Assembly (NCBI GenBank): GCA_033763315.1
Contig: JANRKS010000028.1
Coordinates: 64,001 to 128,000, forward strand
DNA length: 64,000 nucleotides
Source: Deltaproteobacteria bacterium
GTDB taxonomy: Bacteria > Myxococcota_A > Polyangia > Fen-1088
Direction: 5' to 3'
Position 1 is the stretch's first letter; the number at the start of each line of letters is the position of its first letter. Made by a program: the position numbers and the translations under genes. This document shows positions 3,236-25,438 of this stretch, piece by piece. The notes beneath the pieces were generated by a model. The model had not been told where the DNA came from. It did no database searches and saw only the letters and a program-made list of their open reading frames with translations.

Positions 3236-3249
3236 AATAATCGATTAGC
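3236..3249. promoter_or_regulatory. LacI-type operator-like palindrome, copy 1 (AATAATCGATTAGC)
   Basis: Exact TAATCGATTAGC at 3238-3249, in the divergent intergenic region between the GH-like gene and DUF1592 operon 1. Confidence 0.65.
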
Positions 3250-3343
3250 TGAGCGAGCTTTCGTCAGGTCAATCTTGAACGCGTCATCGGTTGAGACCTG
3301 ATTGAAACATTTTCTGATCCAGCGACACCAACGATGACTGGAT

Positions 3344-5083
3344 GTGCCAATGCCAATGAAGTTCTTGGATGGAGTCCTCAAGCTGCGAATCGGGATCCTA
3401 AGCTGCGTAGCTGCGTGCGGTGGAGTAATTCCCAACGGGTATACCGAAGATGACGCTCCGACCGCATCAGGCGGAGACCGAGGCGGCGAAGGCAGCGCGG
3501 GGGGGGCGAGCCCCGCTCCTGCCTCTGGAGGCCTATTTACCTGCGAACGCGGAAGCGTTGCGGCCACGCCGAAGCGCATTTGGCGATTGTCACCGCAGCA
3601 GTACAGCAATACCGTCGAAACTCTGTGGGGGGGCCGTGACCGCCCCACCAAAGCGAACGTCGAGCGGCCCTCTCCCTTCGATGACGAGCCAGTCGTCGAC
3701 CGCTTTTCCACCTTCTCGCGGGCTCACCTGATTAGCGACTTGGCGTTCGGGCGTGTACTGGATTCTGCGTCACGGGTAGCGAATGAGTATGTTCGTTATT
3801 TGCATGCGCAACACCGCAGCTGCCCGACCAACGACAACGTCTGCGCCTTTGCCGTGGTGCAAGAGGCCGCAGAGAAACTGTTTCGCCGCCCGTTGCAGCC
3901 CGTAGAGGACGACCAGTATAAGAAGCTTCTCACCGAAGGACGCGCGCTGTTGGGCGATGAGCAGGGGCTGGCGCTGGTGATCGAAAGCCTTTTGTTGGCG
4001 CCCTCGTTCCTTTACCGGGTGGAACTTGGCCGAGACGAGCTCGACGATACCGGACGCACCCGCCTATCGTCGTATGAAATTGCGTCTGCGATTTCCTATA
4101 GCCTCACGGACGCACCGCCCGACGAGGCGTTGTGGAAGGCGGCGCAAGCCAACGCCTTATCGACCGCGGATGACATTCGCGCGCAGGTGCAAAGGCTAGC
4201 CAGCCTACCAGCGCACCGAAACACCGTAATGCTTTTCCTAAAGGAATACTTTCGCCACAGCATGGCCCAAGACGTGTTCAAGGACGACAAGCAAGTGCCT
4301 TTTCACGATGCGGCCCTGCTCATTGATGACACCGATCGCTGGCTTGCTGAGGTGTACGAGCAGACGGGGCGAGACCAATTTTTAAAGGGTCTTTTGACAT
4401 TTGATCAGGTGGTGGTGCGAGGCAAAACGGCACCCAATTACAATCTTGAAAAGGAGATCGCCGCAGACGCGGCCCCCAAGCTGGTGAGAGCGCCCGACAA
4501 CCAGCGCGTGGGCATGCTTGCGCAACCTAGTTTCCTGACAGCACTGTCCCACAGCGAAGCGACGGATCCCGTACGACGCGGCCGTTTCGTGGCTGAAAAC
4601 CTGTTGTGCGTAGACATACCAGAGTTGCCAATTGGGCTTGTCCCTGAGTTACCCGAAGCAACGGCGGAATCAACGCTCCGCGACCGATTGAAACAACACG
4701 TGGAGGATGATTCCTGCAAGGCTTGCCACAAATTGATGGATCCCATCGGGCTCGGGTTCGAAGGATACGATCACGTAGGCCGCATTCGCGCAACCGAGGG
4801 AGGAAAGCCCGTAAACACCCAGGGCGTCCTGGTAGGCGCCGACGTGCAGGAGGAGCCGTTCGAAGGCGTAGCGCAGCTGGCACAAAAATTGGGAGACAGC
4901 TCGTTGGTGAGCCAGTGCTTTGTGCGGCACGGGTTTTCTTACTGGTTAGGTCGAGCGACGGAGGACAGCGATGGCTGTGCCTTGCAGGCAGTTCACGACG
5001 CGTTCGTCAAGTCGGGGCAAGACCACGTGGCTTTGCTAACGAGCCTGTTTTCATCTGAACCGTTTTTACTTCGGAGGCCATAA
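3344..5083 (+). CDS. DUF1592/DUF1588 (with DUF1587/1595/1585) c-type heme lipoprotein, copy 1
   Basis: Lipobox VAAC; motifs WRLSPQQYSN, LLAPSFLYR, YEIASAISYSL..APPD, TDPVRRG..LLC, CKACH..MDPIGLGFEGYD. True start may be 3350 or 3356. Confidence 0.9.
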   Translation: MPMPMKFLDGVLKLRIGILSCVAACGGVIPNGYTEDDAPTASGGDRGGEGSAGGASPAPASGGLFTCERGSVAATPKRIWRLSPQQYSNTVETLWGGRDRPTKANVERPSPFDDEPVVDRFSTFSRAHLISDLAFGRVLDSASRVANEYVRYLHAQHRSCPTNDNVCAFAVVQEAAEKLFRRPLQPVEDDQYKKLLTEGRALLGDEQGLALVIESLLLAPSFLYRVELGRDELDDTGRTRLSSYEIASAISYSLTDAPPDEALWKAAQANALSTADDIRAQVQRLASLPAHRNTVMLFLKEYFRHSMAQDVFKDDKQVPFHDAALLIDDTDRWLAEVYEQTGRDQFLKGLLTFDQVVVRGKTAPNYNLEKEIAADAAPKLVRAPDNQRVGMLAQPSFLTALSHSEATDPVRRGRFVAENLLCVDIPELPIGLVPELPEATAESTLRDRLKQHVEDDSCKACHKLMDPIGLGFEGYDHVGRIRATEGGKPVNTQGVLVGADVQEEPFEGVAQLAQKLGDSSLVSQCFVRHGFSYWLGRATEDSDGCALQAVHDAFVKSGQDHVALLTSLFSSEPFLLRRP

Positions 5084-5086
5084 GCA

Positions 5087-6553
5087 ATGTCAAAACCGAA
5101 ACCGCTTGGTTCATCCGTGGTTCGCTGTGCACCGTTTACGCGACGGTCTTTACTGGAACGGCTGGGCTTTGGTGCCGGCGCCGCGTTGTTGGCGCCAATC
5201 ACGCAGTCGTTGTTGTCACAGGCGCAAGGCGCCACGCAAACACGCAAATGCGCCGTGTTCGCGCTGTGCGGAAATGGCTTGCACGCGACGTGGAACTTCC
5301 TGCCCCAGGAGTTCAATAAGTATGAGGCCACCGAGAAGTACTTCAACACCAAGTGGGACATGCGCCTGCCCGGAACCACCACCTACACGCTGCCGACGTT
5401 CTTGGAACCGGTGAAGCGGTGGCGGGATCGCATGCTATTGATCGATGGGTTAGAGAACAAAATCCCACGTTCTCAACACTCCGCTGGATACGGCGCCCTT
5501 TCTTGCACCGCTTCGCCCAACGACGCCGCGGCTGAAGCAGGCGGCCCACCTGGTGGTATCACCATCGATCAGCACATCGCACAAGGCATCGGCAAGAACA
5601 CAGCGCACAAGTCAATCCTGTTTGGATTTAACAAATATAAAGAGACGAACACGATCTTTGCCTCAGGGCGCGACAAGCCACAGCCCAACTTTGTGAATCC
5701 GAACGAAATGTTCAAAACTCTGTTCGGTTCGATCACCGGGGGCGAGGGGCTGCAAAAGGCCAACGCGCGTCAGCGTCTTTTGTTGGACGCGATGAAGGCG
5801 GACATCGCGCGCCTGCAGCGCGAGCTGGCTCCCGAGGAGAAACGCAAGCTTGAGGTGCATCTTGCGGCTGTAGAGGACTTCGAGCGACAACAGGCCTCGC
5901 TCCTAAACTTGAAATGCGATGCACCTATAGCGCCGGCAGTCGACATCAACGCAAAGGTTTCGGTGCCGGAAGATATTTTGGAATCCATGTGGTCGATGGC
6001 CACCCTGGCGCTGGCTTGCGGTATGACCAACGTGGTGGGCATGGCGTGCAACACAGGTATGTCGCACCAGAGGTTCGTTCCCTTCCGGCGCATACACGTG
6101 GGAACACAATTTGAGGCGGGCGGTTCAGTTCCAGGTCACGGCCACGAGGGCCGTTCGCTCCAAAAGCCTGCCATGGATCTCATCCATGGTTTCAACATCG
6201 GCTTGATCGCAAAAATGATCGGCATACTTTCGTTGATCAAGGAGGGTGATCGAACCATTTGGGACAATATGGTTGCGGTTTACACCAGCGACAACGGAGA
6301 GGCCCACCATAACAGCGGCGTACGATGGCCTATCGTGGTGTTGGGGAATGCTGGCGGCGCATTGAAGTCGGACGGGCGATACCTTGCTTATCCCTCTCGC
6401 GGCACGAAGGTGGAGGCCGAGAAGGGGAAATGGCGACCACTCGCCGACCTTTACAGCACTCTCGCTACGGCGGTAGGCGTGCCCACGACGGCTTTCGGAA
6501 CCGGCGGTGTTTATCAGACGGTCAAGGGGCCGCTACCTGAAGTTCTTGCGTGA
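5087..6553 (+). CDS. Tat-exported DUF1552 (HXXSHH-type) protein, copy 1
   Basis: Twin-arginine TRRSLL; motifs TIDQHIA, KLEVHL, LACGMTNV, His clusters (GHGHE, EAHH), WPIVVLG. Starts 3 nt after the DUF1592 gene. Confidence 0.88.
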   Translation: MSKPKPLGSSVVRCAPFTRRSLLERLGFGAGAALLAPITQSLLSQAQGATQTRKCAVFALCGNGLHATWNFLPQEFNKYEATEKYFNTKWDMRLPGTTTYTLPTFLEPVKRWRDRMLLIDGLENKIPRSQHSAGYGALSCTASPNDAAAEAGGPPGGITIDQHIAQGIGKNTAHKSILFGFNKYKETNTIFASGRDKPQPNFVNPNEMFKTLFGSITGGEGLQKANARQRLLLDAMKADIARLQRELAPEEKRKLEVHLAAVEDFERQQASLLNLKCDAPIAPAVDINAKVSVPEDILESMWSMATLALACGMTNVVGMACNTGMSHQRFVPFRRIHVGTQFEAGGSVPGHGHEGRSLQKPAMDLIHGFNIGLIAKMIGILSLIKEGDRTIWDNMVAVYTSDNGEAHHNSGVRWPIVVLGNAGGALKSDGRYLAYPSRGTKVEAEKGKWRPLADLYSTLATAVGVPTTAFGTGGVYQTVKGPLPEVLA

Positions 6554-6568
6554 GTCCACAGGCGCTGC

Positions 6569-6594
6569 AGGTGGTGACCACGGTGCCACCACCT
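6569..6594. terminator. Stem-loop between convergent genes
   Basis: AGGTGGTG...CACCACCT inverted repeat; no U-tract. Confidence 0.35.
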
Positions 6595-6619
6595 ACAAAT
6601 TTCATAGGTGCTGGCGGCG

Positions 6620-8044: not shown

Positions 8045-8079
8045 GACAATCACTTTGCAAACTTGGTGCGCAAACTCGC

Positions 8080-8832: not shown

Positions 8833-9084
8833 AATGGTTTCCTTACGTGTTGGACCTAGTCCGCGAATCGTTGATTCAAAGGCGACACAAGCGTTTAGTT
8901 GCGAGGAAAAAGAATCGCCCCTTCAATGATTCACGACACGCAACCCACGTCCTGCGGACACCCTTGCCAACGACGGTCGCGGATTGTTGACCTCGCTCGA
9001 TCTTCAAGATGCGTGTCCAGAAAGCTCGGGTGAAGTGTCCTCCATTGGCCAACTGGCAAATCACAAAATTGGAAGGACGTTACA

Positions 9085-9858: not shown

Positions 9859-11400
9859 TCAAGGTGATGACGGACAAGCGGGGCCTACAGACTGCCACTT
9901 CAGCCCGGTGTTTGTGATCAATCCGAATCGCTGAAGGCCCACCCCCTGACGGCCAAAGCCGAATCGAAGGACGCCATCAGTGACGATCATCTGAAGCTCC
10001 TCGGTTTCGGCCCCCGTTGGGGAACACCCCGAGGCAGCCAAGGAAGCGGCGAAAGCGGAGCCTTCGGGAATCATGGCAATCATCTCATCGCTAAAGACGC
10101 CTATATGATCAACTATCAGATCGGTGCGAATGCCGGCGAATTGGCTGAGCACGAACGGGCTGCCGGAGATCGCGTGGGCAGCGTTGTAAGAAACCGTGAT
10201 CATTCGGCTCAAGGGCGTAGACACAAAGAGAAAGGTCACGTTGCGAGCCGGTGCGTTTAAGGGGTCCAAGGCAACGAGTCCCTGATTGTTCAGGCCCGTC
10301 ACGGTGACACGCCCGAGCTTCGCGTCTGGATGGGCAGCCCGCGCCTCCTGCACTGCCGCAGCAATGATGGTCCGCAGGCTGGAAGTGGAGGCAACTGGCG
10401 TCGCTGGCGCTGCAAGCGGCCGCAAGACGCGAAGATCAAAGACGTCGTCTCGCTCACAAGGTGTCGCGCCGCTCATGGTACCGAGATCCGATGTCAAATC
10501 GATCTGTGTGGTGGCCTCATCGACGATCTCGAAACCAAATCCGAGAGGGCTCTGCGGATCACAGCGCACGCGCGCCAAATGGTAGGGCTGCCGAATCGCC
10601 GCGGGATTGATGATTCCCTTGGCACAGCGGGGCGTGCTTAATGCCGCCTTTAGCGACGGTGCTGCGGCCAGAACCACTAAATTGCCACCGGTGGCGAGCA
10701 GATTCTGGAAATAGCGGGAGGGCAGCCCCGGAAGCTGGGGCCAGGGCAAAGCACCCTGATTCGGCATGGACTCTCCCTCAAGCAGGATGTCTGCAACGTC
10801 GAAACACGCTGGCCAGCCTGCCTCGGCAGACGCGGTCGAAGCCGCCTCTAAGTAGCAGCTGACGAGCGGCGCGAACGTTTCGTCGCTCACAGGCGGCGGC
10901 ACCAGCTGGGGCAAAAGCACAAGCTGCGACCAAGCGGACTGCAGGCGGGTATAAGCCAACGCAGGATCTACGAACGCATGAAGCGCGACAAAGTGCAGCT
11001 CGCCCTTTAGGCGTGCCATCATTTCCGCGTCGGTTGTCTTATCGGAGGCCAACAGGCGATGAGCGACGGGCGGGGGGCAAAGTCGTTCCGGTGGGATCAA
11101 ATCGTCTTGCACGATTGAGAAGGTAAACTCAGCGGGAAAGGCGGTGGCGACGATCGGCAACGCCTGGTGCAGCGGGCGAACGGCAGAGGTCGACAAGGCA
11201 GCGGCGGCCGACGCACGATGAGCCCAGGCCAGCGAAAGGCGTAGCCGCTCCCCTTGGCGGACCGGTCGTGCGAAGGACGACATCACACCCGCTCCGAGAA
11301 ACTTCGGTGTGCCCGCGTAGCCCTTCTCGGCAAGGGGATCGCCACACGCGCAAAACGCCAACCAGAACAAAACAAAAACGGCCTTACCAGTGACAGCCAA
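9859..11400 (-). CDS. Lipoprotein of unknown function, last gene of the ECF/caspase operon
   Basis: GGAG RBS before TTG at 11400, overlapping the caspase stop; signal VFVLFWLAFCAC followed by GDPLAEKGYAGTP. Confidence 0.7.
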   Translation of the reverse strand: MAVTGKAVFVLFWLAFCACGDPLAEKGYAGTPKFLGAGVMSSFARPVRQGERLRLSLAWAHRASAAAALSTSAVRPLHQALPIVATAFPAEFTFSIVQDDLIPPERLCPPPVAHRLLASDKTTDAEMMARLKGELHFVALHAFVDPALAYTRLQSAWSQLVLLPQLVPPPVSDETFAPLVSCYLEAASTASAEAGWPACFDVADILLEGESMPNQGALPWPQLPGLPSRYFQNLLATGGNLVVLAAAPSLKAALSTPRCAKGIINPAAIRQPYHLARVRCDPQSPLGFGFEIVDEATTQIDLTSDLGTMSGATPCERDDVFDLRVLRPLAAPATPVASTSSLRTIIAAAVQEARAAHPDAKLGRVTVTGLNNQGLVALDPLNAPARNVTFLFVSTPLSRMITVSYNAAHAISGSPFVLSQFAGIRTDLIVDHIGVFSDEMIAMIPEGSAFAASLAASGCSPTGAETEELQMIVTDGVLRFGFGRQGVGLQRFGLITNTGLKWQSVGPACPSSP

Positions 11401-12964
11401 ATCCCGCTCCTGGCATAGGGCGCACATCGATGTGTGCGCCGGTTTCGTTCGTGGAATCAACCGTTGCGGTTGATGACACCAGCAGCTCGCTTTCGATCGA
11501 GGCGAAGCAGCTCTCGGCGAGCATGACATCCGCACGTGCAACCATTGCGGCCATGGGCACCCACCGGGCCCGAGACTGTTCACCCGCAGCGTGAAACTCC
11601 TGATGGACCCAACCTAACCCCAAACGTAGCCCCGCGGATGCCGAAACACGGCCAAAGTCGAAGACCTTCCTGGCGCCCATGCGCAAAGCACTTTCACGCA
11701 AAGTGGTTTGTGCGCCAGTTGGCTCTGCCGCCGTTCCCTGGTTATAGCCGCCAAGGACGTCGAAGGTCACGGTCCGAAGGTCAATGGAGAACGTCGCTTT
11801 CACCCCCGGCCCCCAACCGTAGTCAAGGAGCGGTCGGGTCCACCCACCGTAAAGGCCTAAACCGTAAACACGCGAGGGCCCGCTGCCTTTGCGTAAGAGT
11901 TGCGCGTTGCGGACGCGCGTAAAACCTTGACCAGTCAGGTTCACGGTGACGCCCGCTTTCGCCTCCACGTGGCCTTCACGGATTTCGTCGGCCTCGCGGA
12001 TCTGAACGAAGTAGCGCCCTGGCTCCACCCACAAGTTTTTCGGCTGGCTTGTCACGCTGGCTTCGGCCACCACGGCGCCGTCTTTGCCCCCAAGGAAGAT
12101 CACAAAACGTCCTGGACGTTGCAGGCGAAGGTGGCTCGCGTTCTCTGTGTCAATGGGTGCCGCCAGTGTGAGATCTGCGCGCCCCTTGAGCTCGTAATTG
12201 TAGGTTGGATGTTGAATGCCAGCGCCGCTTCCTGCGGTGCTCGCCACGGTGCGTTCGGACGTATAAGTGTAGGCTTCCGATAAGCCAATGCGCCCGTCGC
12301 CGTTCACGTCGGCAGCGCCGTGCAGCGCAGAGATCAGATGATGTGTGAAGAAGGATGCCTGGAGCGCATCCGATTCTTGCGCGTCTTCACCTTCGGCCGC
12401 CGAGGAAAAGATGACAAAGCCCTCTGGCATGCCTTCCTGATCGGGCGGCATTGCGAAAGGCGCAATGGGCTTGATGCCCTTGACCCGCGTTGCCACGCCC
12501 GAGCGACATGCATCCACGAACAAGAGCCGCACGTTCGCTGATGAGCTAACGGTACCCTCGCGCAGTTCATCCCAGCTCAAGCGTCCGTTGCCCAGGTGAA
12601 GCGAGAGGTGATCGCCGTGGCCTGAAAAGAACACCAACACAACGCTGCGTCGAGCCGCGGAGACCTCCAAACGGATCCGGTGGTTCAAGCGGCGAAGCGC
12701 GTCTCGAACCCGATCGGCCGTGGGTTGCTCAAGCACGATCACGTTTTCGGAGAGAAACCCTCCCACAGACTTTAAGGCCTGCCCCACGCGAACGGCGTCT
12801 CGAACAGCGTAACGAAGAGGCACTTCATTTGAAGCGCCAAGGTTCGCGCCAATGATCAAAGCGTACCGCACCTCGGGAAGCGCCTCCGCTTGGGCCATTG
12901 GCGCTTGGAACGCTCGCCACAAACAAAAGGCGAGCGCCAAGGCTATGGCACCACGCAACGTCAA
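11384..12964 (-). CDS. Exported caspase-family (peptidase C14) protease with C-terminal beta-barrel-like domain
   Basis: Signal peptide ending AQA; YALIIGAN...LRYA..DA; catalytic dyad motifs FFSGHGD and FVDACRSG; AQESD...SFFTHHL; amphipathic beta-strand C-terminus ending in W. TTG start at 12964 overlaps the upstream TGA. Confidence 0.88.
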   Translation of the reverse strand: MTLRGAIALALAFCLWRAFQAPMAQAEALPEVRYALIIGANLGASNEVPLRYAVRDAVRVGQALKSVGGFLSENVIVLEQPTADRVRDALRRLNHRIRLEVSAARRSVVLVFFSGHGDHLSLHLGNGRLSWDELREGTVSSSANVRLLFVDACRSGVATRVKGIKPIAPFAMPPDQEGMPEGFVIFSSAAEGEDAQESDALQASFFTHHLISALHGAADVNGDGRIGLSEAYTYTSERTVASTAGSGAGIQHPTYNYELKGRADLTLAAPIDTENASHLRLQRPGRFVIFLGGKDGAVVAEASVTSQPKNLWVEPGRYFVQIREADEIREGHVEAKAGVTVNLTGQGFTRVRNAQLLRKGSGPSRVYGLGLYGGWTRPLLDYGWGPGVKATFSIDLRTVTFDVLGGYNQGTAAEPTGAQTTLRESALRMGARKVFDFGRVSASAGLRLGLGWVHQEFHAAGEQSRARWVPMAAMVARADVMLAESCFASIESELLVSSTATVDSTNETGAHIDVRPMPGAGFGCHW

Positions 12965-13668
12965 GGCGGACTCTCGACGGGAATGCTGGCAGATGACGAC
13001 GCACAATCTCGGGGTGGGTCGTCCTTCTTTGCCAACTTGCAAAGCCGCCATCGCAGACGCACCGGTGCCCCCGCAGTCACCTCGAACCCCAGCGGGATCC
13101 AATCTCCGGATTTCACAGCGCCCACGAAGACCGCCTGCCAGCCGGCGTTGGTCTCGACTTCGAGCTGCAACCAATTCTTGGTGCCAACCGCATGAAACCG
13201 CAGCTTGTCGCCTGCTTGCAGCACAGACACCTCCCGAACCTCCATGACGGCGACGTTGCCATCGTGGTCGCGCACACCCATCTTTAGCGAGGCTTCGCCC
13301 TTGGCGCGGACGGTTTCGTCGTGCACGATTGTCGACGGCCTTGGTACCGAGAAGAAGAGCACCAGAGCCATCGCTGGTACCGCCAAGGCTCCCACCCACA
13401 TCCAAAATGGATCCCGCCGCCGCAGGTTACCTTGGTGGGGCCTCACGATTTGCGCGGGTGCGAGGCTGCCAGCCGACGATCGACGCGCCGCCTCGACCTC
13501 TGCGAGAATTTTTCGGCTGGCCGCCGAGTTCCTCGTCCTGGCTTCAAAAGCCGCGCGCTCGACGTCGCTCATCTCGTTCAAGGCCCAACGGTGTGCTTGC
13601 CACTCGGAAATCTCGCATTCCGGGTCGCGCTCGCGCGTGAACAAATCTTTGGATGGGGCGGCGGACAT
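12961..13668 (-). CDS. Putative single-pass membrane anti-sigma factor
   Basis: Directly downstream of the ECF sigma (TGATG overlap). Short N-terminal cytoplasmic domain, one TM (FWMWVGALAVPAMALVLFF), VRAKG motif and a beta-rich periplasmic domain. Confidence 0.65.
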   Translation of the reverse strand: MSAAPSKDLFTRERDPECEISEWQAHRWALNEMSDVERAAFEARTRNSAASRKILAEVEAARRSSAGSLAPAQIVRPHQGNLRRRDPFWMWVGALAVPAMALVLFFSVPRPSTIVHDETVRAKGEASLKMGVRDHDGNVAVMEVREVSVLQAGDKLRFHAVGTKNWLQLEVETNAGWQAVFVGAVKSGDWIPLGFEVTAGAPVRLRWRLCKLAKKDDPPRDCASSSASIPVESPP

Positions 13669-14261
13669 CAATAGGCCTCGAGCAGGCGGCGCGCCTGCTT
13701 GGTGAAGCGCTCAATCCGTCGGCCAACCGTGCGGCGGGGCACGCCAACAAGGCTGGCGATCTCATCCTGATCCATTCCGTCGATGAAGTGATGAATGGCC
13801 ACGATGGCATTCTCTGGATCGACTTGTCCCAACAGCCAACGGATGTCTGCCCGGAGGTCTGCTTGGGGGCCCGCGAGGGGTGCATCCGGTTGATACACTT
13901 TCTCGCGCAAAAGTCTCTCTCTGGTCTTGCTGTCCCTTAGAACGTTGAGCGCCAGGTTGGTGACGGCACGGAACAGAAAGGCCGCCGCGTGTTGTTCCCT
14001 ACCGCCCCTTTCGCGATGAACGATGAAACTAACAAACGCTTCGTGTGCCAGATCTTTCGCGAGCTCTTCATTGCGAACCAATCGCGTTGCACGACGGCGA
14101 AGCAGCCCTATGTGAGTTCCATAGAGTTCGTTGACGTCGTCGACAGCCGAGACAGCGGTGGAAGATGCCGTGGATGGTCTTGATGCTTGGACAAACGCTC
14201 GTGCGCGCCGCGGGACGAGCCGCCAAAAAACATCGTTCGGGACGGTTTCTAATTTTGACAT
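13668..14261 (-). CDS. ECF sigma-70 factor
   Basis: Region 2 (LAKDLAHEAF...FLFRAVTNLALNVLR) and region 4 (DGMDQDEIASLVGVPRRTVGRR). Confidence 0.9.
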   Translation of the reverse strand: MSKLETVPNDVFWRLVPRRARAFVQASRPSTASSTAVSAVDDVNELYGTHIGLLRRRATRLVRNEELAKDLAHEAFVSFIVHRERGGREQHAAAFLFRAVTNLALNVLRDSKTRERLLREKVYQPDAPLAGPQADLRADIRWLLGQVDPENAIVAIHHFIDGMDQDEIASLVGVPRRTVGRRIERFTKQARRLLEAY

Positions 14262-14296
14262 CGTCTGAACTCGTGGACCCTTGAAGCCTACGGGAC

Positions 14297-14312
14297 GGCT
14301 AATCGATTAGCC
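14297..14312. promoter_or_regulatory. LacI-type operator-like perfect palindrome, copy 2 (GGCTAATCGATTAGCC)
   Basis: 16-bp perfect palindrome in the divergent intergenic region, about 85 nt upstream of the Gfo/Idh/MocA gene. Confidence 0.7.
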
Positions 14313-14396
14313 AGGTGAATTTCTCGACGCCGCGTCTCAAGTCAGCGGCAGCAGACGCCTGTCGACCAGTTGTGAAAAGGCGTTAAACTCTTGGAG

Positions 14397-15404
14397 ATGA
14401 AGCCGCTTACAGGCGCGATTGTTGGCTGCGGCATGATTTCCGAGTTCCACTTGCGGGCTTGGCAATGCCTCGAAGGCGTTGACATCACGGCGTTTTGCGA
14501 TGTGGACGAGGCTGCTGGCTCGCGGCGGCGTGATGAATACTTTCCCAACGCAAGGGTATACAGCGACCTTGCGGCCTTGCTCGCGAACGAAGACGTTGAC
14601 TTTATCGATGTGGCCAGCCCACCGGACTTCCATGCTGCGCACGTAAGCCTGGCCTTGGCCGCCAACCGCCATGTGATCTGCCAAAAACCACTGACCTCAG
14701 ACGCAGCGACCGCAACCGCATTGGCAACGTCCGCGCGCGAACGGCAGCTTACGCTGGCGGTTCATGACAACCACAGGTTTCGTCCCTGGTTCCAACGCGT
14801 CCTCGCCGCCCACGCCCGCCAACAGTTTGGCCACGTGGTGCATGTGCGTTGGCACCAGTACGATGCAGCGGCCCCTTCGCAACGCTACAAGGTTAAAGCG
14901 CCCCAAGGTGTGCTGTTCGAGTACGGCACGCACTTCATTGATATGATGCTGGCATTGCTCGGCGAACCCAAGGATGTATCGGCGCAGCTGTCTCGTATCA
15001 ACGAAAGCGTGGCGGGCGAGAGCTTCGCGCACCTCATGTTTCGTTATGAAAACAGTGGTGTGGACATTTCAGTTGGATGGAAGAATGCCGGGCCACTTTC
15101 AGCCGGGTTTCATCTCTTGGGCACAACCGGCGAAGTCATCTATGAAGGCACGCTCACACGGGGGCCACAAAGCCATCTGCAAATTCTTACTTCAGGAAAG
15201 CTTCTTGCCGACGAGCGAAGAGATCCCACGGCCGATTACATCGAAAGCTTCATTGCTTACCAGCAGGCCTTCGTGGCGTCGCTGCGTGCCACCCCACAGC
15301 CACCACCCCCCATTACGGCCACCGAAGGTGCTGCCGTATTGGCGTGGACCGAGGCTGCATATGAATCTGCGCGCACCGGCAAGCCTATTGCTAAGCGTCT
15401 GTGA
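14397..15404 (+). CDS. Gfo/Idh/MocA family NAD(P)-dependent oxidoreductase
   Basis: IVGCGMIS Rossmann motif, H..CQKPL, HDNHRFRP, G.LFEYGTHFID; GGAG immediately precedes ATG 14397. Confidence 0.9.
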   Translation: MKPLTGAIVGCGMISEFHLRAWQCLEGVDITAFCDVDEAAGSRRRDEYFPNARVYSDLAALLANEDVDFIDVASPPDFHAAHVSLALAANRHVICQKPLTSDAATATALATSARERQLTLAVHDNHRFRPWFQRVLAAHARQQFGHVVHVRWHQYDAAAPSQRYKVKAPQGVLFEYGTHFIDMMLALLGEPKDVSAQLSRINESVAGESFAHLMFRYENSGVDISVGWKNAGPLSAGFHLLGTTGEVIYEGTLTRGPQSHLQILTSGKLLADERRDPTADYIESFIAYQQAFVASLRATPQPPPPITATEGAAVLAWTEAAYESARTGKPIAKRL

Positions 15405-15407
15405 TCG

Positions 15408-16787
15408 ATGCCCATGAAATCCACCCCTGCCAACGTTGTCGGCCTTGTCGCCGTGGTGGCGCTTCCCCTCTTTGCCGGTTGTGCGCCATCCCCCAACGCG
15501 ATCCCTACGTCCGCGGCAAGGGACGATTTGGTGCGTTTTGGTGCGCCTTTTACATCCGTGTTTCGCCCAGATCCTGAATCGCCCTATCACCTGCGCAACC
15601 AGGAGGGGCAGCACCTGTTCATATTGGCCAAAACCGCATGGCATTACTTCAACGCCAAAGATCCCCAGCAAGTGTTGCAGCACGCGCGTGCCCTGGGCGC
15701 AAACGTGATTCGCGTGGCGCTTGAGGGCAATCTGTATTTTGAGGAGTTGAGCATCGATGCGTGGCCGTGGTCAGGAACCCGCAAGCAGCCGCACTTCGCG
15801 ACCTTCAACGAAGCATACTGGACGCGGGTGCAAGACCGGATCGAGTTGGCGGGGCGAGCCGGCATCGGCATCGATCTGGTACTCTATGCTTCATTGCATC
15901 TGAACGAAGACGCCGTGCCCGAACAGCGCCTGTATTGGCAACGTGTGTTGGAAAGGCTGGGTCGCTACAGCAACATCCTTACCTGGGAGATCCAAAATGA
16001 ATACGTGGCAAATGAGCGTTTTCAAGACGAAGTAGCGGCGTTCTTTCAGCAGCACGATCAACATAGACGGCCGATCATCACCTCGAATGGCACGCGTGAC
16101 GTCCCCACGTGGCCGGAAAAACCATGGATGGGCATGGCCATCACCCACACGTGTACAGGCTCCACCAATAGTCATCCGCTGGGGCGTTGGTACCTGGCGG
16201 TGGCACGCAACGCACGCACATTCGGCAAGCCTTCCTTCAACAACGAAACCGGACGAGAGACTCGTCATCGCAACGATGATGGTGTGCACAGGCGCAAACA
16301 AGCGTGGCTGTGGAGCACGGCAGGAGGCTTTTGGACGTGGCACAGTTGGGATGGGTGTGAAGGCATCAACGATGCCACCTACAAGGCGCCTGGCGAAGAC
16401 TTCATGTTGCCCCTGGCCACGTTCTTTCGGTCGCTACCGTTTTGGCGGCTGCACCCGGAACACGTGGCGGTGCAGATCTCAGACGACCGTTTGATCCACG
16501 CGGCGCAGGCCAACGTTGAGCGTGAATACGTAATGACTTATGTGGCCACCTTAGCGACAAATGCGCAGGTGCAGGGAGCCCAGCTTCAGTATCGTTTGCG
16601 TGATGGACGCTACCACGTGACGTTTCGGGATCCGGCGAGTGGCCGTGTGGTAGATGAAACCGACCTTGAGGCCAAAGGCATTGGCACCGTGGACGTGTTG
16701 CCGATACCAACTTTTCGCGACGATTTGGTGATCGAGTTGCGCCGAACCAAAACCGCAAAGGTCACAGAGATGCCGGCCACCCACTGA
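15408..16787 (+). CDS. DUF4038 / apiosidase-like glycoside hydrolase lipoprotein
   Basis: Lipobox FAGC; LFILAKTAW, NILTWEIQNEY (acid/base-like NE), KPSFNNETG (nucleophile-like E); C-terminal beta-sandwich-like region. Confidence 0.75.
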   Translation: MPMKSTPANVVGLVAVVALPLFAGCAPSPNAIPTSAARDDLVRFGAPFTSVFRPDPESPYHLRNQEGQHLFILAKTAWHYFNAKDPQQVLQHARALGANVIRVALEGNLYFEELSIDAWPWSGTRKQPHFATFNEAYWTRVQDRIELAGRAGIGIDLVLYASLHLNEDAVPEQRLYWQRVLERLGRYSNILTWEIQNEYVANERFQDEVAAFFQQHDQHRRPIITSNGTRDVPTWPEKPWMGMAITHTCTGSTNSHPLGRWYLAVARNARTFGKPSFNNETGRETRHRNDDGVHRRKQAWLWSTAGGFWTWHSWDGCEGINDATYKAPGEDFMLPLATFFRSLPFWRLHPEHVAVQISDDRLIHAAQANVEREYVMTYVATLATNAQVQGAQLQYRLRDGRYHVTFRDPASGRVVDETDLEAKGIGTVDVLPIPTFRDDLVIELRRTKTAKVTEMPATH

Positions 16788-16819
16788 AAGCGAAGGTCGT
16801 CGGCATTGTGCTGGCTGGC

Positions 16820-16858
16820 GCGAAGGCGCATGGCAATGTCCTTGCCACACGCCTTCGC
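16820..16858. terminator. Long stem-loop between convergent genes (possible bidirectional terminator)
   Basis: GCGAAGGCG-ca-TGGCAA-tgtcc-TTGCCA-ca-CGCCTTCGC. Confidence 0.5.
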
Positions 16859-16867
16859 CAATTGGGC

Positions 16868-18334
16868 CTACGCTTTGATCTGGCCCAGAACTTTATCCCG
16901 CTGGGCAGCGTCTTTGGAGAAGCCCATGAACTGGTTCACGCCCAGTCCCTGCAGCACGGCGTTGTAGAAGTTGGAGGCATGGGTGTCGAACATGAAGGGT
17001 TGCCCCGTCTTAAAGCGCCCGTTGGCGCCCGAAATCACGTGCAACACGTTACGCGTGGAATGCCCGCCGCCCCCATCTCCCAACTCTGACGACACCATCA
17101 CCGGATTGGCTTCAAGGTACGTTTTGCCGTTTTCTGCCTGGATTCGGTCCAGCCGCGACAGAAAATATTCGACCTGGGCAAGCATGTAGAGCGAGTGCAT
17201 GCGCGCGCCGATGTTGGCGCTGCTGTTTTCGTCATTCGCGACATTGTGGTAGTAGCTCAGGTGATTGGATTCGCCGTTGTCTGCGAAGTTGATGGTCTGA
17301 TCTTTGTACTTCCAAGCCGTCTTGAACCGCACGTGATCACCGGCACCTTGGAACGTGATGTTGCCAAAGCGTGCGATGTCGCAGGATAGGGCCATCGCAT
17401 ACGTGTCGGCCATCGCTTGCCAAACCTTCTCCCACATCACAGCATCCACTACACGATCGTTGCTTCCGGCTCCCTCCTTTTCAAGGGCACGACGACTTGT
17501 TGTAACCTGAGGCGCACTCAGCGTGCATGCTGCAGAGGTTCCTCCGCCATCAGCTTGAAGCTGGCCAATGCGCAGCTCGAGGCTGCGGACCTCTTCAAGG
17601 TGGTCACGAAGGCGGGCTCGGCTGGAAGAACTCAACCCTGCGGCATCGGATGTCCAATGTTTGTACTCTTCCATCGCGGTGTCGAGCACACTCTTGGCGT
17701 AGATCTGCTTCTTGTTGTCAACAGGTGCGCTGCCCATAGGTGGTTTAGGGGCTGGCGCGAGACCCATGACCGCCTTGAACAAAACATCTACTTCAGAATA
17801 GGGCTCGGCGGCCACCTGCCCGTCCTCACGCCACGTGTGCCGCTCGTTCGAATAGTTCCGAGTGTTAAAGTATGTGGCCGCCGCCAAGGTTTGGATTGGC
17901 GAAGGAGAACGGCCACCAGCGTAGCCGTTCTTAAGAACCACCTGATCAATGGATGCGCCCTGGGCGCGAATGCTCGAAGTTGAGCCCCGTCCGGCGATAC
18001 CCGTGAAGCACTGCACGCCAGACTGCGCGTGCGTGCCGCTTTCAGTTTGATGAAGGCCGCTGTAGATGCCGAGCTTCGACCGCAAACCGTCGAGCGGCAG
18101 CAAAGGGTCGGGCGCCAAGCGAGGGCCGGCTCCATAGTGCGTTTGAAACCAACGGCCGGTCACGCCGTGGGCGAAGAACACCGTGACGAAGCGTGCTGGC
18201 ACAGGCTCGGGGGCGCCGAAGGCACTGTTGCGGCGCATTTCATCCAGCATTGGCATGCCGATCAATGCGCCGGCGGCGCTTCGCAAGAACGTGCGACGCG
18301 GAAGAACGTGGCGATACTTAAGATCGAGTTTCAT
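16868..18334 (-). CDS. Tat-exported DUF1552 protein, copy 2
   Basis: Start MKLDLK (18334); PRRTFLR; ASIDQ, SVLD, RLRDHLEEVRSLE, ALSCDIARF, NHLSYYH, SELGDGGGGHS. Confidence 0.88.
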   Translation of the reverse strand: MKLDLKYRHVLPRRTFLRSAAGALIGMPMLDEMRRNSAFGAPEPVPARFVTVFFAHGVTGRWFQTHYGAGPRLAPDPLLPLDGLRSKLGIYSGLHQTESGTHAQSGVQCFTGIAGRGSTSSIRAQGASIDQVVLKNGYAGGRSPSPIQTLAAATYFNTRNYSNERHTWREDGQVAAEPYSEVDVLFKAVMGLAPAPKPPMGSAPVDNKKQIYAKSVLDTAMEEYKHWTSDAAGLSSSSRARLRDHLEEVRSLELRIGQLQADGGGTSAACTLSAPQVTTSRRALEKEGAGSNDRVVDAVMWEKVWQAMADTYAMALSCDIARFGNITFQGAGDHVRFKTAWKYKDQTINFADNGESNHLSYYHNVANDENSSANIGARMHSLYMLAQVEYFLSRLDRIQAENGKTYLEANPVMVSSELGDGGGGHSTRNVLHVISGANGRFKTGQPFMFDTHASNFYNAVLQGLGVNQFMGFSKDAAQRDKVLGQIKA

Positions 18335-18359
18335 CTGAGGCTCCCTGCGTTTGATAAAG

Positions 18360-20105
18360 TCACTGCGCAGCTCGCACCATGCGAAATTGCGGGTCTTCCA
18401 CCACCGCGGCGAACAGCGCGTACAAGCTGTTTCCATTCTTCGCGGCCCTTGCACGAATGTTGTAAACGGGGCATGCGTCTTTGCCTTGAGTCTCAAGCCC
18501 CCGGCCCCAAGCGTACTGGGTCACCTTTTGCGAAAGACAACTTCGGAAGCGCACGTCTTCGCTCAGCAGCCTTAGGAAGTCGCGATGACCCTCGTAGGGC
18601 CGATCTTCTTCAACGTCGGGCGAGCCCATCCACAACATCGTGCCATCGGTTCGCAAAACGTTATCGTTGCCGTCACGTTCAACCCAACGACCCGTGCCGT
18701 CAAAACGTTCAAAGGGAAACGCCAGCGGATCGAAGCCGCTATGGCAGGCTCGGCAGGTGCCGTTCTCGGCTCGCGCGTCAGCATTCATGCGCTCGGTGAC
18801 CCCCGGCCCTAAAGGCCGTTGGTTCAATGCCGTGTTCACGTTTGGCCCCGGAGCCGCGGGGCTTTGGCACAAAATTGTCTTGAAGATGGTGAGTCCGCGT
18901 TCAACAACTTTGGGAATGTCGGCACCAGCATGGGCCATGAGGAATCCAGCATGTGTGAGGAAACCCAGTCGTGGTTGGTTGTCTGGCAGTTCAACCCGCC
19001 CGAACGTGTCGCTGGCATTCGCAGCACCTACGCCCGAGTGCTGGGCTAAGCGACGTGACGTAAAGGTGAAGGGCGCCGTTGCCAGCTCCCACGCAGGCGT
19101 ATCTCTGTCGTCGAGAAAGTGCTCGAACAACTGCAACGACTCTTGCACCATGTCGTTGCGAAGCTCAGCGCCAAGCGGCACATCGCTCTCGTCGCGTGTG
19201 GTGTCTGCAATTAAGTCCAAGCCCAACCACTCGGATACAAACGTGCGGAGGCCCTTCTTCGCGCGTGGATGCTTCATCAATCGCTCAAACTGCGAGGTCA
19301 ATCCAGCAGCGCGATCGAGGTCGCCCTTCTGGGCCGCATCCAGGAGCTCTGCATCTGGGCCCGAGCCCCATGCCAAGAACGCAAGACGCGTGGCTAGTTC
19401 ATAACCATCTAATTTTCGAGCGGGACCATTTTCTGGCGCAGGTTCTAGCCGGTAAAGAAACTGCGGGGAGGCAATCAGGGCGCGAAGAACCAACGTCGCG
19501 CCCATGCCGAAATCATCGCCTTGGTCCTTGGCCACCTTAAAGAGGCTCTGAAACCGCGACACTTGGCCTTCATCCAGGGGATGCCGCAGCAATCGTCGCC
19601 CCAACTCCTGCGTGAATCGTTTTTCGCACGGATCGCCGAATGCATCGCACCCAGCCAGCGCCTTTGTTGAAGAGCGTACTTTTGTGGCCACTTTTTCGGC
19701 CCATACGTCAATGCTCTGCACGAACTGCTGCGACGTAAGCAGCACCTGAACGTCGTTGCGGAACCCTTCAGGCGCCCGCACACCCACCGGCAAAGTTTCG
19801 CCAAGTTCGTCCAGCTCAAGAGCCACTTCGACAGATCTCATGATCTCGTCGGCGCTAAGCCGACGCAAGGGAACCACAGGAACATCCTGATCGTCCTGCA
19901 TGCACTCGACGGGCTTTTCGCCCACGAACGGCGGTGGTTGGCTGTCATCATCGGGGGGCGGCTGATCGTCGTTTGACGGGTCCTCCTCATCCGAGCTGCG
20001 ACCTTTGTTGATGCCGCCCGTGCATCCTGCAAAGGCTGTCGCCAACGCAACACCCAAGACAACAAGTCGAAATGGTTGAACAAGCCCACATTCCAAGAAC
20101 TTCAT
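18360..20105 (-). CDS. DUF1592/DUF1588 c-type heme lipoprotein, copy 2
   Basis: Lipobox FAGC; LRRLSADE, ASPQFLYRLE, YELATRLAFLAW..GPD, RG...ILC, CRACH..FDPLAFPFERFD. Confidence 0.9.
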   Translation of the reverse strand: MKFLECGLVQPFRLVVLGVALATAFAGCTGGINKGRSSDEEDPSNDDQPPPDDDSQPPPFVGEKPVECMQDDQDVPVVPLRRLSADEIMRSVEVALELDELGETLPVGVRAPEGFRNDVQVLLTSQQFVQSIDVWAEKVATKVRSSTKALAGCDAFGDPCEKRFTQELGRRLLRHPLDEGQVSRFQSLFKVAKDQGDDFGMGATLVLRALIASPQFLYRLEPAPENGPARKLDGYELATRLAFLAWGSGPDAELLDAAQKGDLDRAAGLTSQFERLMKHPRAKKGLRTFVSEWLGLDLIADTTRDESDVPLGAELRNDMVQESLQLFEHFLDDRDTPAWELATAPFTFTSRRLAQHSGVGAANASDTFGRVELPDNQPRLGFLTHAGFLMAHAGADIPKVVERGLTIFKTILCQSPAAPGPNVNTALNQRPLGPGVTERMNADARAENGTCRACHSGFDPLAFPFERFDGTGRWVERDGNDNVLRTDGTMLWMGSPDVEEDRPYEGHRDFLRLLSEDVRFRSCLSQKVTQYAWGRGLETQGKDACPVYNIRARAAKNGNSLYALFAAVVEDPQFRMVRAAQ

Positions 20106-20204
20106 GGGAACCTTTCTTCAAGCCACGCGATAGGTCGTCCACGCGGCGAACGTTGGAGCGAGCGAGCAGCGCCTGAGCCCCATCGACGTGAGACTATGCC
20201 GCCA

Positions 20205-20218
20205 GCTAAACGCTTAGG
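20205..20218. promoter_or_regulatory. Variant operator-like site (GCTAAACGCTTAGG)
   Basis: 11/14 match to GCTAATCGATTAGC, about 100 nt upstream of DUF1592 copy 2. Confidence 0.5.
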
Positions 20219-20283
20219 CAAGGTATTTTTGCCATATCCAAGAGCGATTTGCACGTCCGCGCGCAGCGGTCTACCTTGACGAG

Positions 20284-21123
20284 ATGGACGAGGCGCTGTT
20301 TGCCATTCACCGGCGAAACAATGAGGCCACGCGCAACGCAAACAACACGTTCAGCGCACACCGTCGCCGTCTTACCAGCCTCCTCGTGCAGACTCCTGGC
20401 GGGCGGCTGGCGGTGCTGGGGGCCGGAAATGGCAATGATTTAGACTGGAACGTATTGTTAGCTGCCTTCGAGGAAGTGCACGTTTTCGACATTGACGAAG
20501 AGGCCACGTCTTACCTCTTGGACGCGCTGCCGAAATCCGCCACACCGGTGGTCGCCCATGCGCCCGTGGACCTTACGGGCACCGCATCACGCTACGCCGC
20601 ATGGCAAGCCCGACGGATCTCTCCGGAAGAATTGACTCTTGTGGCCACGGACGCGATTGAGGCCGTGGCAAGCGACATTGGTGAAACGTACGACGTCGTC
20701 GTCTCCACCTGCCTGCTATCGCAGCTTATGCACGGCGCACGCATCGCGCTTGGCGCGCAGCACGCGGACCTGCGCGCTTTGGCGGTTTGCCTGCAGCTGG
20801 GCCACCTGCGCTTGCTGTCACGTCTGTTGAACAGACATGGCAGGGCAATTTTGGTTTCAGACGTTGCGTCCAACGACGACCTCGATTTACGCCCGGTGGT
20901 GAGCTCTGAAACAGCGGCCCAGGCCATGGCCATGCTCACAGCCAACGGGCGCTGCTTTACCGGAACGGACCCTCTGCAAAGCCTTAGAATGCTTGAGACG
21001 GACGAAGTGCTTGCCACACAGGTGGACGCCCAGCTGCCGCTCAATGCGTGGGTCTGGCAGATGTCCGCTGTCAGGTCCTATCTGGTGGCGGCGCTGACAT
21101 TCGCACGAAAAACGTTGACCTAA
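20284..21123 (+). CDS. Class I SAM-dependent methyltransferase-like protein
   Basis: LAVLGAGNGND, VHVFDID, YDVVVSTCLLSQL. Confidence 0.7.
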   Translation: MDEALFAIHRRNNEATRNANNTFSAHRRRLTSLLVQTPGGRLAVLGAGNGNDLDWNVLLAAFEEVHVFDIDEEATSYLLDALPKSATPVVAHAPVDLTGTASRYAAWQARRISPEELTLVATDAIEAVASDIGETYDVVVSTCLLSQLMHGARIALGAQHADLRALAVCLQLGHLRLLSRLLNRHGRAILVSDVASNDDLDLRPVVSSETAAQAMAMLTANGRCFTGTDPLQSLRMLETDEVLATQVDAQLPLNAWVWQMSAVRSYLVAALTFARKTLT

Positions 21124-21132
21124 TCGATTAGC
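21119..21132. promoter_or_regulatory. LacI-type operator-like palindrome, copy 3 (CCTAATCGATTAGC)
   Basis: Exact TAATCGATTAGC at 21121-21132; overlaps the methyltransferase stop, about 90 nt upstream of DUF1592 copy 3. Confidence 0.65.
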
Positions 21133-25425: not shown

Positions 25426-25438
25426 TAGGGCCTTCGTG

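Follow-up and report, generated by a model that had tools for sequence, protein, structure and literature searches.

Shared LacI/GalR-type palindromes before DUF1592/DUF1552 gene pairs and sugar-enzyme genes: a candidate regulon in a Fen-1088 bacterium

Four palindromes in the window, the 64,000-nucleotide stretch of DNA analysed here, are probably operators of a LacI/GalR-family repressor encoded outside it, and would define a small, species-specific regulon. The 12-mer TAATCGATTAGC occurs exactly at 3238-3249, 14300-14311 and 21121-21132, and the variant GCTAAACGCTTAGG at 20205-20218, as an earlier note on this DNA had reported. A second-strand match to TAATCGATTAGC at 14298 (minus) arises because site 2 lies inside a perfect 16-bp palindrome, GGCTAATCGATTAGCC (14297..14312), which has the top PWM score in the whole genome. 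Site 1 (3236..3249, AATAATCGATTAGC) has a degenerate left half-site, site 3 (20205..20218) lies in a divergent promoter region, and site 4 (21119..21132, CCTAATCGATTAGC) overlaps the stop codon of an ORF at 20284-21123. All four are even 14-mer palindromes centred on CG and lie upstream of starts, so that the LacI/GalR operator signature recognised in the earlier note holds.

Measured from the end of the 14-mer, site 1 lies 94 nt from the start of a DUF1592 gene and 42 nt from that of the divergent gene. Site 2 is 79 nt away from a Gfo/Idh/MocA (Gfo) gene and 36 nt from an ECF sigma gene that runs divergently, and site 3 is 99 nt away from a minus-strand DUF1592 gene and 65 nt from a 279-aa ORF. 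Site 4 is 44 nt from the first ATG of the third DUF1592 gene and 89 nt from the next. All four sites are in promoter regions, 36-99 nt from the nearest starts; the spacing of 85-110 nt proposed earlier was roughly right for the genes then named, and the ECF sigma gene had gone unmentioned. According to the available part of Ravcheev 2014 (PMC4052901), the motifs of 1173/1303 LacI-family TFs are palindromes of even length with CG at the centre, and over 75% of sites fall 30-140 nt upstream of the start codon. The four window sites share both features. A sigma-70-like promoter was found at only one of the four, site 1, which overlaps the -10 hexamer of a TTGCAA-16-AATAAT promoter (3214-3241, + strand).

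Such a word is rare by chance. TAATCGATTAGC did not turn up in any of 100 shuffled versions of the window that preserved dinucleotides; the earlier note had roughly estimated far less than one occurrence per 64 kb for this AT-rich word. The 10-bp core TAATCGATTA has five sites in the 7.6-Mb genome (three in the window, plus C2:387389 and C7:3916, where C-numbers denote contigs of this genome, G000), against an expectation of 0.3-0.6 per genome and 0.06-0.08 in promoter-bearing intergenic DNA (Markov orders 1-5). All five adjoin start codons. The six best PWM-B matches in the genome (score of at least 18) are all intergenic, and most lower ones are intragenic. Genes outside the window come from our own codon-usage ORF caller (5952 calls, 90.9% coding), which misplaced some starts (rbsR, the ECF sigma gene and the third DUF1592 gene are examples). 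The 12-mer CTAANCGNTTAG has three copies in this genome, every one in the window; across 80 same-family genomes it occurs once in each of 4 and is missing from the other 76, and none of the copies in other family members is near relevant genes.

These counts bear on the view that the repeats have no regulatory role, being chance AT-rich palindromes, a restriction-modification word (ClaI-type core ATCGAT) or mobile-element remnants. The motif is indeed absent at about 103 other DUF1592 promoter regions and missing from most relatives, yet in addition to the shuffling result, five copies were observed in promoter DNA where about 0.07 are expected, the flanks of the sites are unrelated, and orthologous genes of three other organisms have the same 14-mer at the same promoter position. 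This explanation is disfavoured, and we give it almost no weight. A duplication relic was ruled out as well: the flanks of the four window sites differ, and in the paralog tree the four motif-linked DUF1592 genes stand no nearer to one another than random paralog pairs do (pairwise distances 2.5-3.2, against a median of 2.48).

A Pfam scan agreed with the earlier gene map of the window. Site 1 is followed on the plus strand by DUF1592-type protein 1 (3344..5083; Pfam PSD5, PSD4, PSCyt3 and PSD2; one CXXCH) and DUF1552 protein 1 (5087..6553; Pfam; N-terminal RR motif). Divergent from it, on the minus strand, is a lipoprotein with an apiosidase-like (PF13204-like) TIM-barrel domain (1742..3193), which has no Pfam match and resembles PF13204 clusters in language-model features (0.97) and predicted structure (TM 0.85-0.91); a hypothetical gene (813-1751) comes after it. 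Site 2 separates an ECF-type sigma factor gene (13668..14261, minus; Pfam Sigma70_r2 and r4_2), at the head of an operon that also includes a 236-aa ORF and a gene for a caspase-domain protein, from genes on the plus strand for a Gfo/Idh/MocA oxidoreductase (14391..15404; Pfam; best PDB match the 5UHW/5UI9 oxidoreductase) and an apiosidase-like (PF13204, formerly DUF4038) glycoside-hydrolase-like protein (15408..16787; Pfam). On the minus strand at site 3 are DUF1592-type protein 2 (18360..20105) and DUF1552 protein 2 (16868..18496, true start probably internal), both Pfam-matched. The plus-strand 279-aa ORF between sites 3 and 4 (20284..21123) has no family match and contains VLGAGNGND, which we take to resemble a SAM-binding motif. 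Site 4 precedes DUF1592-type protein 3 (21177..22949, plus; Pfam) and DUF1552 protein 3 (22971..24326, plus; Pfam, 218 bits). All three DUF1592-type proteins are of the PSD5/PSD4/PSCyt3/PSD2 type.

The two apiosidase-like proteins and the Gfo/Idh/MocA oxidoreductase are carbohydrate-utilisation candidates of the kind expected among LacI targets. Two paralogous loci of the same genome, a Gfo/5DMH-like cluster at C9 and a class-II aldolase at C38, carry no site. PF13204 is named after an apiosidase, and PDB entries 5UHW-5UIB presumably belong to work on D-apiose. Apiose as substrate is kept only as a lead, because all that could be confirmed is the identity of 5UI9 as a Gfo/Idh/MocA-class oxidoreductase from Agrobacterium radiobacter (PMC7535918). 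The available part of the ApnO paper (PMC13753588) makes no mention of the 5UHW-5UIB entries.

As the earlier note had supposed, repressor genes are found elsewhere: the genome has three LacI-family HTH genes (PF00356 above cut-off), at C2, C19 and C34, all outside the window. Ten further regulator-size ORFs in the window included none of LacI, GntR or DeoR type, the only regulator among them being NarL-type (44694-45320). The C2 LacI gene is the first of an rbsR-rbsB-A-C-ribokinase operon. This gene has TGTAATCGATTACA immediately in front of its start codon, and rbsB is preceded by TGTAATCGTTTACA, both positions being kept in the same-genus genome G002 (other G-numbers denote further relatives). 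An autoregulatory copy had been predicted, and the core is indeed present at this LacI promoter; that copy, however, is of a different class from the window sites. Class A half-sites (rbsR; TGTAAnCGnTTACA) have G at ±6 in 6/6, whereas class B half-sites, those of the window, have C at ±6 in 7/8, giving the operator form GCTAATCGATTAGC in contrast to TGTAATCGATTACA.

The window sites thus lack the G at ±6 and T at ±7 expected of a TVSR helix. In the available part of Camas 2010 (PMC2978694), NT-6 covaries with AA-20, and TVSR proteins pair with G at NT-6. Under this rule, the C at ±6 means that the window sites may belong to a different LacI paralog. The candidate is the orphan paralog at C19:311346-312356, the sole one of the three without Arg at AA-20, having Ser instead (TVSS rather than TVSR). 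This assignment draws on a single covariation rule together with the phyletic distribution in six genomes, among which the C19-type paralog occurs in G000 and G002 only (82% identity, same TYTVSS helix). A class-B-like site before a xylose-isomerase-like TIM-barrel gene (C35:178250) is kept in G002 and absent from the orthologous promoters of G001, G005, G006 and G011. Scanning G001 and G002 with one mismatch allowed gave too much noise to serve as more than a pointer to this C35-type site. G002 has the C19 ortholog and lacks the exact CTAANCGNTTAG, and a candidate site before uxaC (C17:45036) is not kept there. The C34 paralog was rejected as the cognate repressor, being of TVSR type with its own upstream AAAAGCGCTTTT palindrome, and the C38 protein was rejected as a LacI protein, since it has a GntR-type HTH. 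Scans around the LacI genes of C19 and C34 and the C38 GntR-HTH/Peripla_BP gene found no class-B site scoring at least 6. An autoregulatory copy, which 72% of LacI TFs have at their own gene, thus gives no tie here between site and TF.

The shared core also suggests that the rbsR-like C2 repressor might bind both classes, its own TGTAATCGATTACA sites and those of the window, in which case ribose or a related pentofuranose would be the signal for the DUF1592 operons. The inner 10 bp are identical and all five genomic copies fall in one class or the other, C2 is the only LacI gene with the core at its own promoter, and a DUF1592/DUF1552 pair and GH127 genes likewise have class-A sites beside them. 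Yet the split at ±6 is clean, C2 is a TVSR protein for which the published covariation, as far as the available text goes, predicts G at NT-6 (PMC2978694), and G005 has a 71% C2 ortholog with the same helix and no conserved C35-type site. We therefore consider dual binding unlikely and prefer a separate repressor for the window class, with the C2 protein binding the sister class TGTAATCG(A/T)TTACA.

Beyond this genome, the window-class palindrome precedes orthologs of the window Gfo gene in three unrelated metagenomic organisms. With PWM-B scores of at least 12, it was found in 4/54 upstream regions of metagenomic Gfo homologs and in 0/54 controls, the four regions representing three organisms because L134 equals L135. 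The window Gfo is the best G000 match of these orthologs (41-42% identity, with the next paralog at 26-28%). Their operons run from Gfo through a class-II aldolase-like protein to a 5DMH/1YZY-like protein, and the sites start about 3-6 nt past the -10 of TTGACA-17/18 sigma-70-like promoters.

This placement matters for the idea that the palindrome is bound by a non-LacI regulator, either of NarL/GerE type, such as that at 44694-45320, or an unrecognised local HTH protein. Activators such as most NarL-type regulators are expected upstream of -35, whereas the metagenomic sites lie just past -10, where a repressor would act. In addition, an even dyad with a central CG and an AAnCGnTT core is the LacI signature, and a bona fide LacI operator of the same genome shares 10/14 positions. 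Since class-B sites are linked to no LacI gene, NarL-type regulators and Reg_prop kinases are the most enriched neighbours of DUF1592/DUF1552 pairs in this genome, and several small window ORFs have no Pfam match, we leave this idea a small chance, well below that of dual binding by C2, and retain a LacI-family repressor as the preferred reading.

In closer relatives the motif was rarely found. Twelve same-family genomes and 7/8 same-class genomes lack the exact 10-mer. The relatives searched hold no orthologs of the window DUF1592 operons, Gfo gene or apiosidase-like gene: their best DUF1592 match has 42% identity, and a search of 20 relatives with the window Gfo found nothing at E <= 1e-40. 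They thus offer no orthologs of the three DUF1592 operons whose upstream regions could be compared. None of 13 STAANCGNTTAS (S-TAANCGNTTA-S) sites in five relatives has DUF1592 or DUF1552 genes closer than 1.5 kb. In a GTDB scan, 0/20 apiosidase-like homolog loci had the motif and 0/20 had DUF1592 or DUF1552, which were also absent from all 80 Gfo-homolog loci.

The genome has 112 adjacent DUF1592/DUF1552 pairs, four of which carry a site. The window and C7 pairs are adjacent and on the same strand, with Pfam domains above the gathering score; the C7 pair shares its promoter region with a GH127 operon, and its site is of the TGTAATCGATTACA type (class A). An enrichment upstream of DUF1592 genes in general was not borne out: the core is present in 4/107 DUF1592 promoter regions, so the motif tells little about the family overall. 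The functional handle anticipated in the earlier note thus covers four pairs and not the family, and the predicted co-regulation of DUF1592 modules with glycosidases would likewise apply to this small subset of pairs. K-mer and dyad enrichment over the 107 promoter regions revealed no motif shared across the family, yielding only start-codon and signal-peptide words and a TAATC|GATTA dyad (3 foreground, 1 background).

CXXCH is present in 118/121 genomic DUF1592 proteins, including all three site-linked ones in the window. All three window DUF1552 proteins have an N-terminal RR motif; the strict [ST]RRx[hydrophobic] pattern occurs in 26/132 DUF1552 proteins genome-wide. Besides NarL-type regulators and Reg_prop histidine kinases, enriched neighbours of the pairs include ECF sigma with FecR, polysaccharide-lyase-like and PA14 proteins, these families being single-linkage BLAST clusters named from one Pfam-scanned representative each. 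Sequence searches found no PDB relatives of DUF1552 or DUF1592. An AlphaFold2 model of DUF1552 from a six-paralog alignment had a mean pLDDT of 49.5, too low for a fold search, and atlas features gave a weak pointer to DUF1501 (0.83), a lead only.

The RbsR and CcpA-cre operators have the consensus TGnAAnCGnTTnCA. The window sites are like them in being even palindromes with a central CG and an AAnCGnTT core, 30-140 nt upstream of carbohydrate targets, as far as the available part of PMC4052901 describes them, and the genome's own autoregulatory RbsR-type operator has the same inner 10 bp. They differ in having C instead of G at ±6 and G/C instead of T at ±7, in having no window-class copy at a LacI gene, and in that their targets include DUF1592/DUF1552 pairs, which appear in no LacI regulon described in the papers searched. 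Bacteroidota PULs have SusC/D pairs under HTCS, ECF-sigma/anti-sigma or SusR control. The pairs studied here may be compared with them as a highly multiplied two-gene module with many copies beside a dedicated sensor. This is an analogy only, as there is no homology to SusC/D, DUF1592 being a heme-c protein and DUF1552 a Tat-type exported one. The PSD5-PSD4-PSCyt3-PSD2 order beside DUF1552 matches that of 'Planctomycete-specific' PSCyt3/PSD genes with a partner of unknown family next to them in the available part of He et al. 2017 (mSphere, PMC5615132), the only source found, within its available text, to discuss a role for DUF1592/PSCyt3 and DUF1552. There, a carbohydrate role is proposed from CBM fusions and gene context, and the function is stated as not known. 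Unlike in that study, the link here is a cis-regulatory site shared with glycoside-hydrolase-like and sugar-oxidoreductase genes rather than mere neighbourhood, for 4/112 pairs in one genome.

In the model we propose, the repressor would sit on each site as a dimer, its hinge helices placed at the central CG. When the effector, presumably a sugar or sugar acid, is absent, RNA polymerase would be blocked at or just downstream of the promoter; when it is present, the repressor would leave the DNA. The regulon would comprise the three DUF1592/DUF1552 (heme-c/Tat) pairs, the two apiosidase-like hydrolases and the Gfo/Idh/MocA oxidoreductase, probably also the ECF sigma operon and the 279-aa ORF, and, through one conserved weaker site elsewhere, the C35 TIM-barrel gene. 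More tentatively, DUF1592/DUF1552 pairs could be a PVC-type counterpart of PUL modules, each of the roughly 112 using heme-c/Tat-dependent chemistry in the periplasm to deal with a single class of glycan or sugar derivative under its own sensor, with the window set serving a branched or acidic pentose-type substrate. If so, the sensors would be a Reg_prop kinase with NarL, an ECF sigma with FecR anti-sigma, or a remote LacI-type repressor. The partners would here be the apiosidase-like hydrolases and Gfo, whose orthologs elsewhere head an acid-sugar kinase/aldolase operon with the same operator.

The candidate regulon is new, of a known kind, and a useful but narrow functional clue: for one species, it offers a foothold on the family rather than a general answer. 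For a lineage that has been little studied, it also adds candidate repressors and a rare predicted cis-regulatory element. Some PVC bacteria have hundreds of DUF1592/PSCyt3 and DUF1552 proteins in a genome, and with an operator shared with sugar-enzyme genes, the sugar that releases the repressor would mark the condition under which three DUF1592/DUF1552 pairs are expressed.

The exact 12-mer TAATCGATTAGC occurs at 3238, 14300 and 21121 of the window, and a variant, GCTAAACGCTTAGG, at 20205; exact matching thus bears out the positions claimed for them in the earlier note. The copy at 14300 falls within the perfect 16-bp palindrome GGCTAATCGATTAGCC, and no copy arose in any of 100 dinucleotide-preserving shuffles of the window. 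The operator-like palindromes around these words (sites 1 to 4) start at 3236, 14297, 20205 and 21119. Pfam agrees with the gene map first drawn from the sequence, identifying three pairs of a DUF1592-type gene (PSD5-PSD4-PSCyt3-PSD2) and a DUF1552 gene at 3344-6553 (+), 20105-16868 (-) and 21177-24326 (+); at 14391-16787 it places a Gfo/Idh/MocA gene and, behind it, one for an Apiosidase-like (PF13204) protein. No Pfam family matched the lipoprotein encoded divergently from site 1 (1742-3193). Its description as GH-like is fair, because the protein resembles PF13204 proteins in language-model features (0.97) and in predicted structure (TM 0.85-0.91).

Other genes also adjoin the sites. An ECF sigma gene (13668-14261) is 36 nt away from site 2, while a 279-aa ORF starts 65 nt after site 3 and has its stop codon overlapped by site 4. 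On the minus strand at 11384-14261, this ECF sigma gene comes first, then a 236-aa ORF without family match and then a caspase-domain (Peptidase_C14) protein of ~670 aa, and these genes and site 2 have one promoter region in common. Directly downstream of the third pair are minus-strand genes for a di-heme cytochrome c peroxidase (CCP_MauG, 24397-25500) and an Hpt/HATPase sensor kinase (25439-27499).

For the LacI family, Ravcheev et al. (2014, PMC4052901) report central-CG even palindromes for 1173 of 1303 transcription factors, autoregulation for 72% and more than 75% of sites 30-140 nt ahead of the start codon. Both the palindrome type and the placement hold for the window sites. The reading of these sites as LacI operators is well supported as to site class, of which the predicted operator is an ordinary member, and the proposed repressor mechanism is plausible.

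The whole assembly measures 7.63 Mb (60.6% GC, 40 contigs), the window being C28:64001-128000. The 10-bp core TAATCGATTA has five genomic copies, where Markov models of order 1-5 predict 0.3-0.6 for the genome and 0.06-0.08 for promoter-bearing intergenic DNA (583 kb). Random or mostly intragenic copies had been named as evidence against a regulon; instead, all five adjoin start codons, one of them within an N-terminal extension called in error. With a weight matrix derived from the four window sites, six genomic matches scored at least 18, all intergenic, and weaker matches were mostly intragenic. The 12-mer CTAANCGNTTAG has three copies in the genome, all within the window; among 80 genomes of the same family, four have one copy each and the other 76 have none.

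The two core copies outside the window read TGTAATCGATTACA and define a second class of site. Position ±6 is G in six of six half-sites of this class A and C in seven of eight half-sites of the window type, class B, the inner 10 bp being common to both. One copy directly precedes a LacI-family gene on contig C2, the first gene of an operon whose other products are a ribose-type binding protein, an ABC ATPase, a permease and a kinase that scores above the ribokinase equivalog cut-off; a further site, TGTAATCGTTTACA, follows the repressor gene, ahead of rbsB. This rbsR-rbsB-A-C-ribokinase operon (C2:381836-387372) thus has two predicted TGTAATCG(A/T)TTACA operators. The other copy, at C7:3914, is 45 nt from an operon that combines a 409-aa gene with GH127; a fourth site-linked DUF1592/DUF1552 pair is 209 nt away. 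Weaker class-A sites precede an inosine-uridine nucleoside hydrolase, a GH127-CBM9 gene and a Gfo-MFS operon. The same-genus genome G002 has an rbsR ortholog (82% identity) and class-A sites at the same three places, namely the rbsR promoter, the rbsB promoter and the GH127 ortholog (loci L013, L058 and L060). This conservation makes class A a well-supported RbsR-type operator. The autoregulatory copy that the earlier note expected at a LacI gene was thus found for class A, at the rbsR-like gene; no class-B site was found near any LacI-family gene of the genome.

Camas et al. (2010, PMC2978694) describe covariation of operator position NT-6 with residue AA-20 of the recognition helix, TVSR proteins pairing with G at NT-6. 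Two of the three LacI-family proteins of the genome are of TVSR type (STATVSRV on C2, SQSTVSRV on C34). The third (C19:311346-312356), an orphan gene adjoining murB, has the helix STYTVSSV, with Ser in place of Arg at AA-20. Its ortholog in G002 has 82% identity and the same helix, and none was found in the relatives G001 or G005. A class-B-like site, (G/C)CAAATCGATTAGGTA, just before a xylose-isomerase-like TIM-barrel gene is likewise kept in the source genome and G002 and is absent from the orthologous promoters of G001, G005, G006 and G011. On the basis of this phyletic pattern and the AA-20 rule, both thin lines of evidence, we tentatively propose the C19 protein as the class-B repressor, at somewhat under even chances; its own promoter showed no central-CG palindrome. 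The C19 protein (TVSS) would then bind GCTAATCGATTAGC and the rbsR-like protein TGTAATCGATTACA. It is rather unlikely that the rbsR-like protein represses the window sites too: the inner 10 bp would suit it, and its TVSR helix is of the type paired with G. The remaining likelihood falls to a regulator other than these two.

Related regulators and palindromes were seen elsewhere. Upstream of the C34 paralog lies the perfect palindrome AAAAGCGCTTTT (C34:114542-114553), with GCGATATCGC-like repeats closer to the gene start; this region is probably the paralog's own operator. At C38:48465-49532, a regulator combines a GntR-type HTH with a LacI-type periplasmic-binding-protein sensor domain in one protein; its neighbours are genes for an ECF sigma factor and a sugar ABC binding protein. 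In G005, two loci (L051 and L054, site at 1501 in each) have a longer common palindrome, AATCGT-(G/C)TAA(T/A)CG(T/A)TTAG-ACG(A/C)TT, ahead of the genes for a TPR protein and a Fic-domain protein, and may represent a different regulon with a related core.

The genome encodes 121 DUF1592 and 132 DUF1552 genes, with 112 adjacent pairs. DUF1592 genes are faced by 107 of 2884 promoter-bearing intergenic regions (3.7%) and by four of the seven regions with strong class-A or class-B sites (binomial P ~6e-5, with three of the four being neighbours and the choice post hoc). Inheritance of the sites with a duplicated gene is ruled out, as no close paralogy links the four DUF1592 genes. No motif common to the other ~103 DUF1592 promoters was found. 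The neighbour families with the strongest enrichment place the following members within three genes of a pair: 16 of the genome's 33 NarL-type response regulators, 14 of 28 Reg_prop histidine kinases, 8 of 11 polysaccharide-lyase-like proteins, 5 of 9 FecR, 5 of 13 ECF sigma factors and 4 of 8 PA14 proteins, an organisation resembling polysaccharide utilization loci. A two-component or ECF system occurs within four genes of 36 of the 121 DUF1592 genes; none of these clustered systems was found at that distance from the three operator-linked window pairs (the ECF sigma gene at site 2 is truncated in the gene calls and unclustered). A Reg_prop-type kinase is encoded near the C7 pair, and the window's fourth pair (48119-51504, -) is near a kinase/regulator pair (41641-45320). 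The picture suggested by these neighbourhoods is of many DUF1592/DUF1552 modules with their own sensor and a few under a remote LacI-type repressor.

Neither the window Gfo gene nor its first DUF1592 gene had orthologs in the 20 nearest genomes. A metagenome scan with the Gfo protein gave 80 loci (identity at most 54%), 54 of which extended at least 60 nt upstream of the gene and were scored. A class-B site scoring at least 12 lay directly upstream in four of these 54, whereas 54 control regions had none. One sequence is present twice among the four, leaving three organisms: L134 = L135 (CCTAATCGATTAGC), L137 (TCTAAGCGATTAGT) and L149 (CCTAAGCGATTAGC and CCTAACCGATTAGG, one at each of two divergent promoters). 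The Gfo genes at these loci match the window gene best (41-42% identity; next paralog 26-28%). Their sites start ~3-6 nt past the -10 hexamer of TTGACA-17/18 promoters, which is the position predicted for a repressor. The order of TTGACA-17/18 promoter, predicted CTAAnCGATTAG operator and Gfo/Idh/MocA gene recurs in these unrelated organisms (L135 2841-5266, L137 46-3011, L149 408-1548). In L135 and L137, the next gene after Gfo encodes a class-II aldolase-like protein (PDB 6VOP, fuculose-phosphate aldolases), and after it comes a 5DMH/1YZY/3DQQ-like protein, whose family we take to be the DUF1537 acid-sugar kinases. The title of a study on such kinases is among the references of PMC13753588. 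Together, the genes resemble an operon for acid-sugar catabolism that would be controlled by the same type of repressor.

He et al. (2017, PMC5615132) report that PSCyt3 genes adjoin an unknown family and that some PSCyt proteins bear carbohydrate-binding modules, and state that nothing is known of PSCyt function. Our full-text literature search found no function or regulator for DUF1592, DUF1552, DUF1553, DUF1501 or DUF1549 in the text it covered. New here are the target set of the operator and the candidate repressors. Judged from sequence, the predicted regulon is real insofar as its operators are shared, conserved and non-random, and it is small and specific to this species. Given its conservation in three organisms and its Gfo, aldolase and kinase-like context, class B is predicted to act as a conserved operator on a gene of sugar or acid-sugar catabolism, and would in this genome have been recruited to additional promoters.
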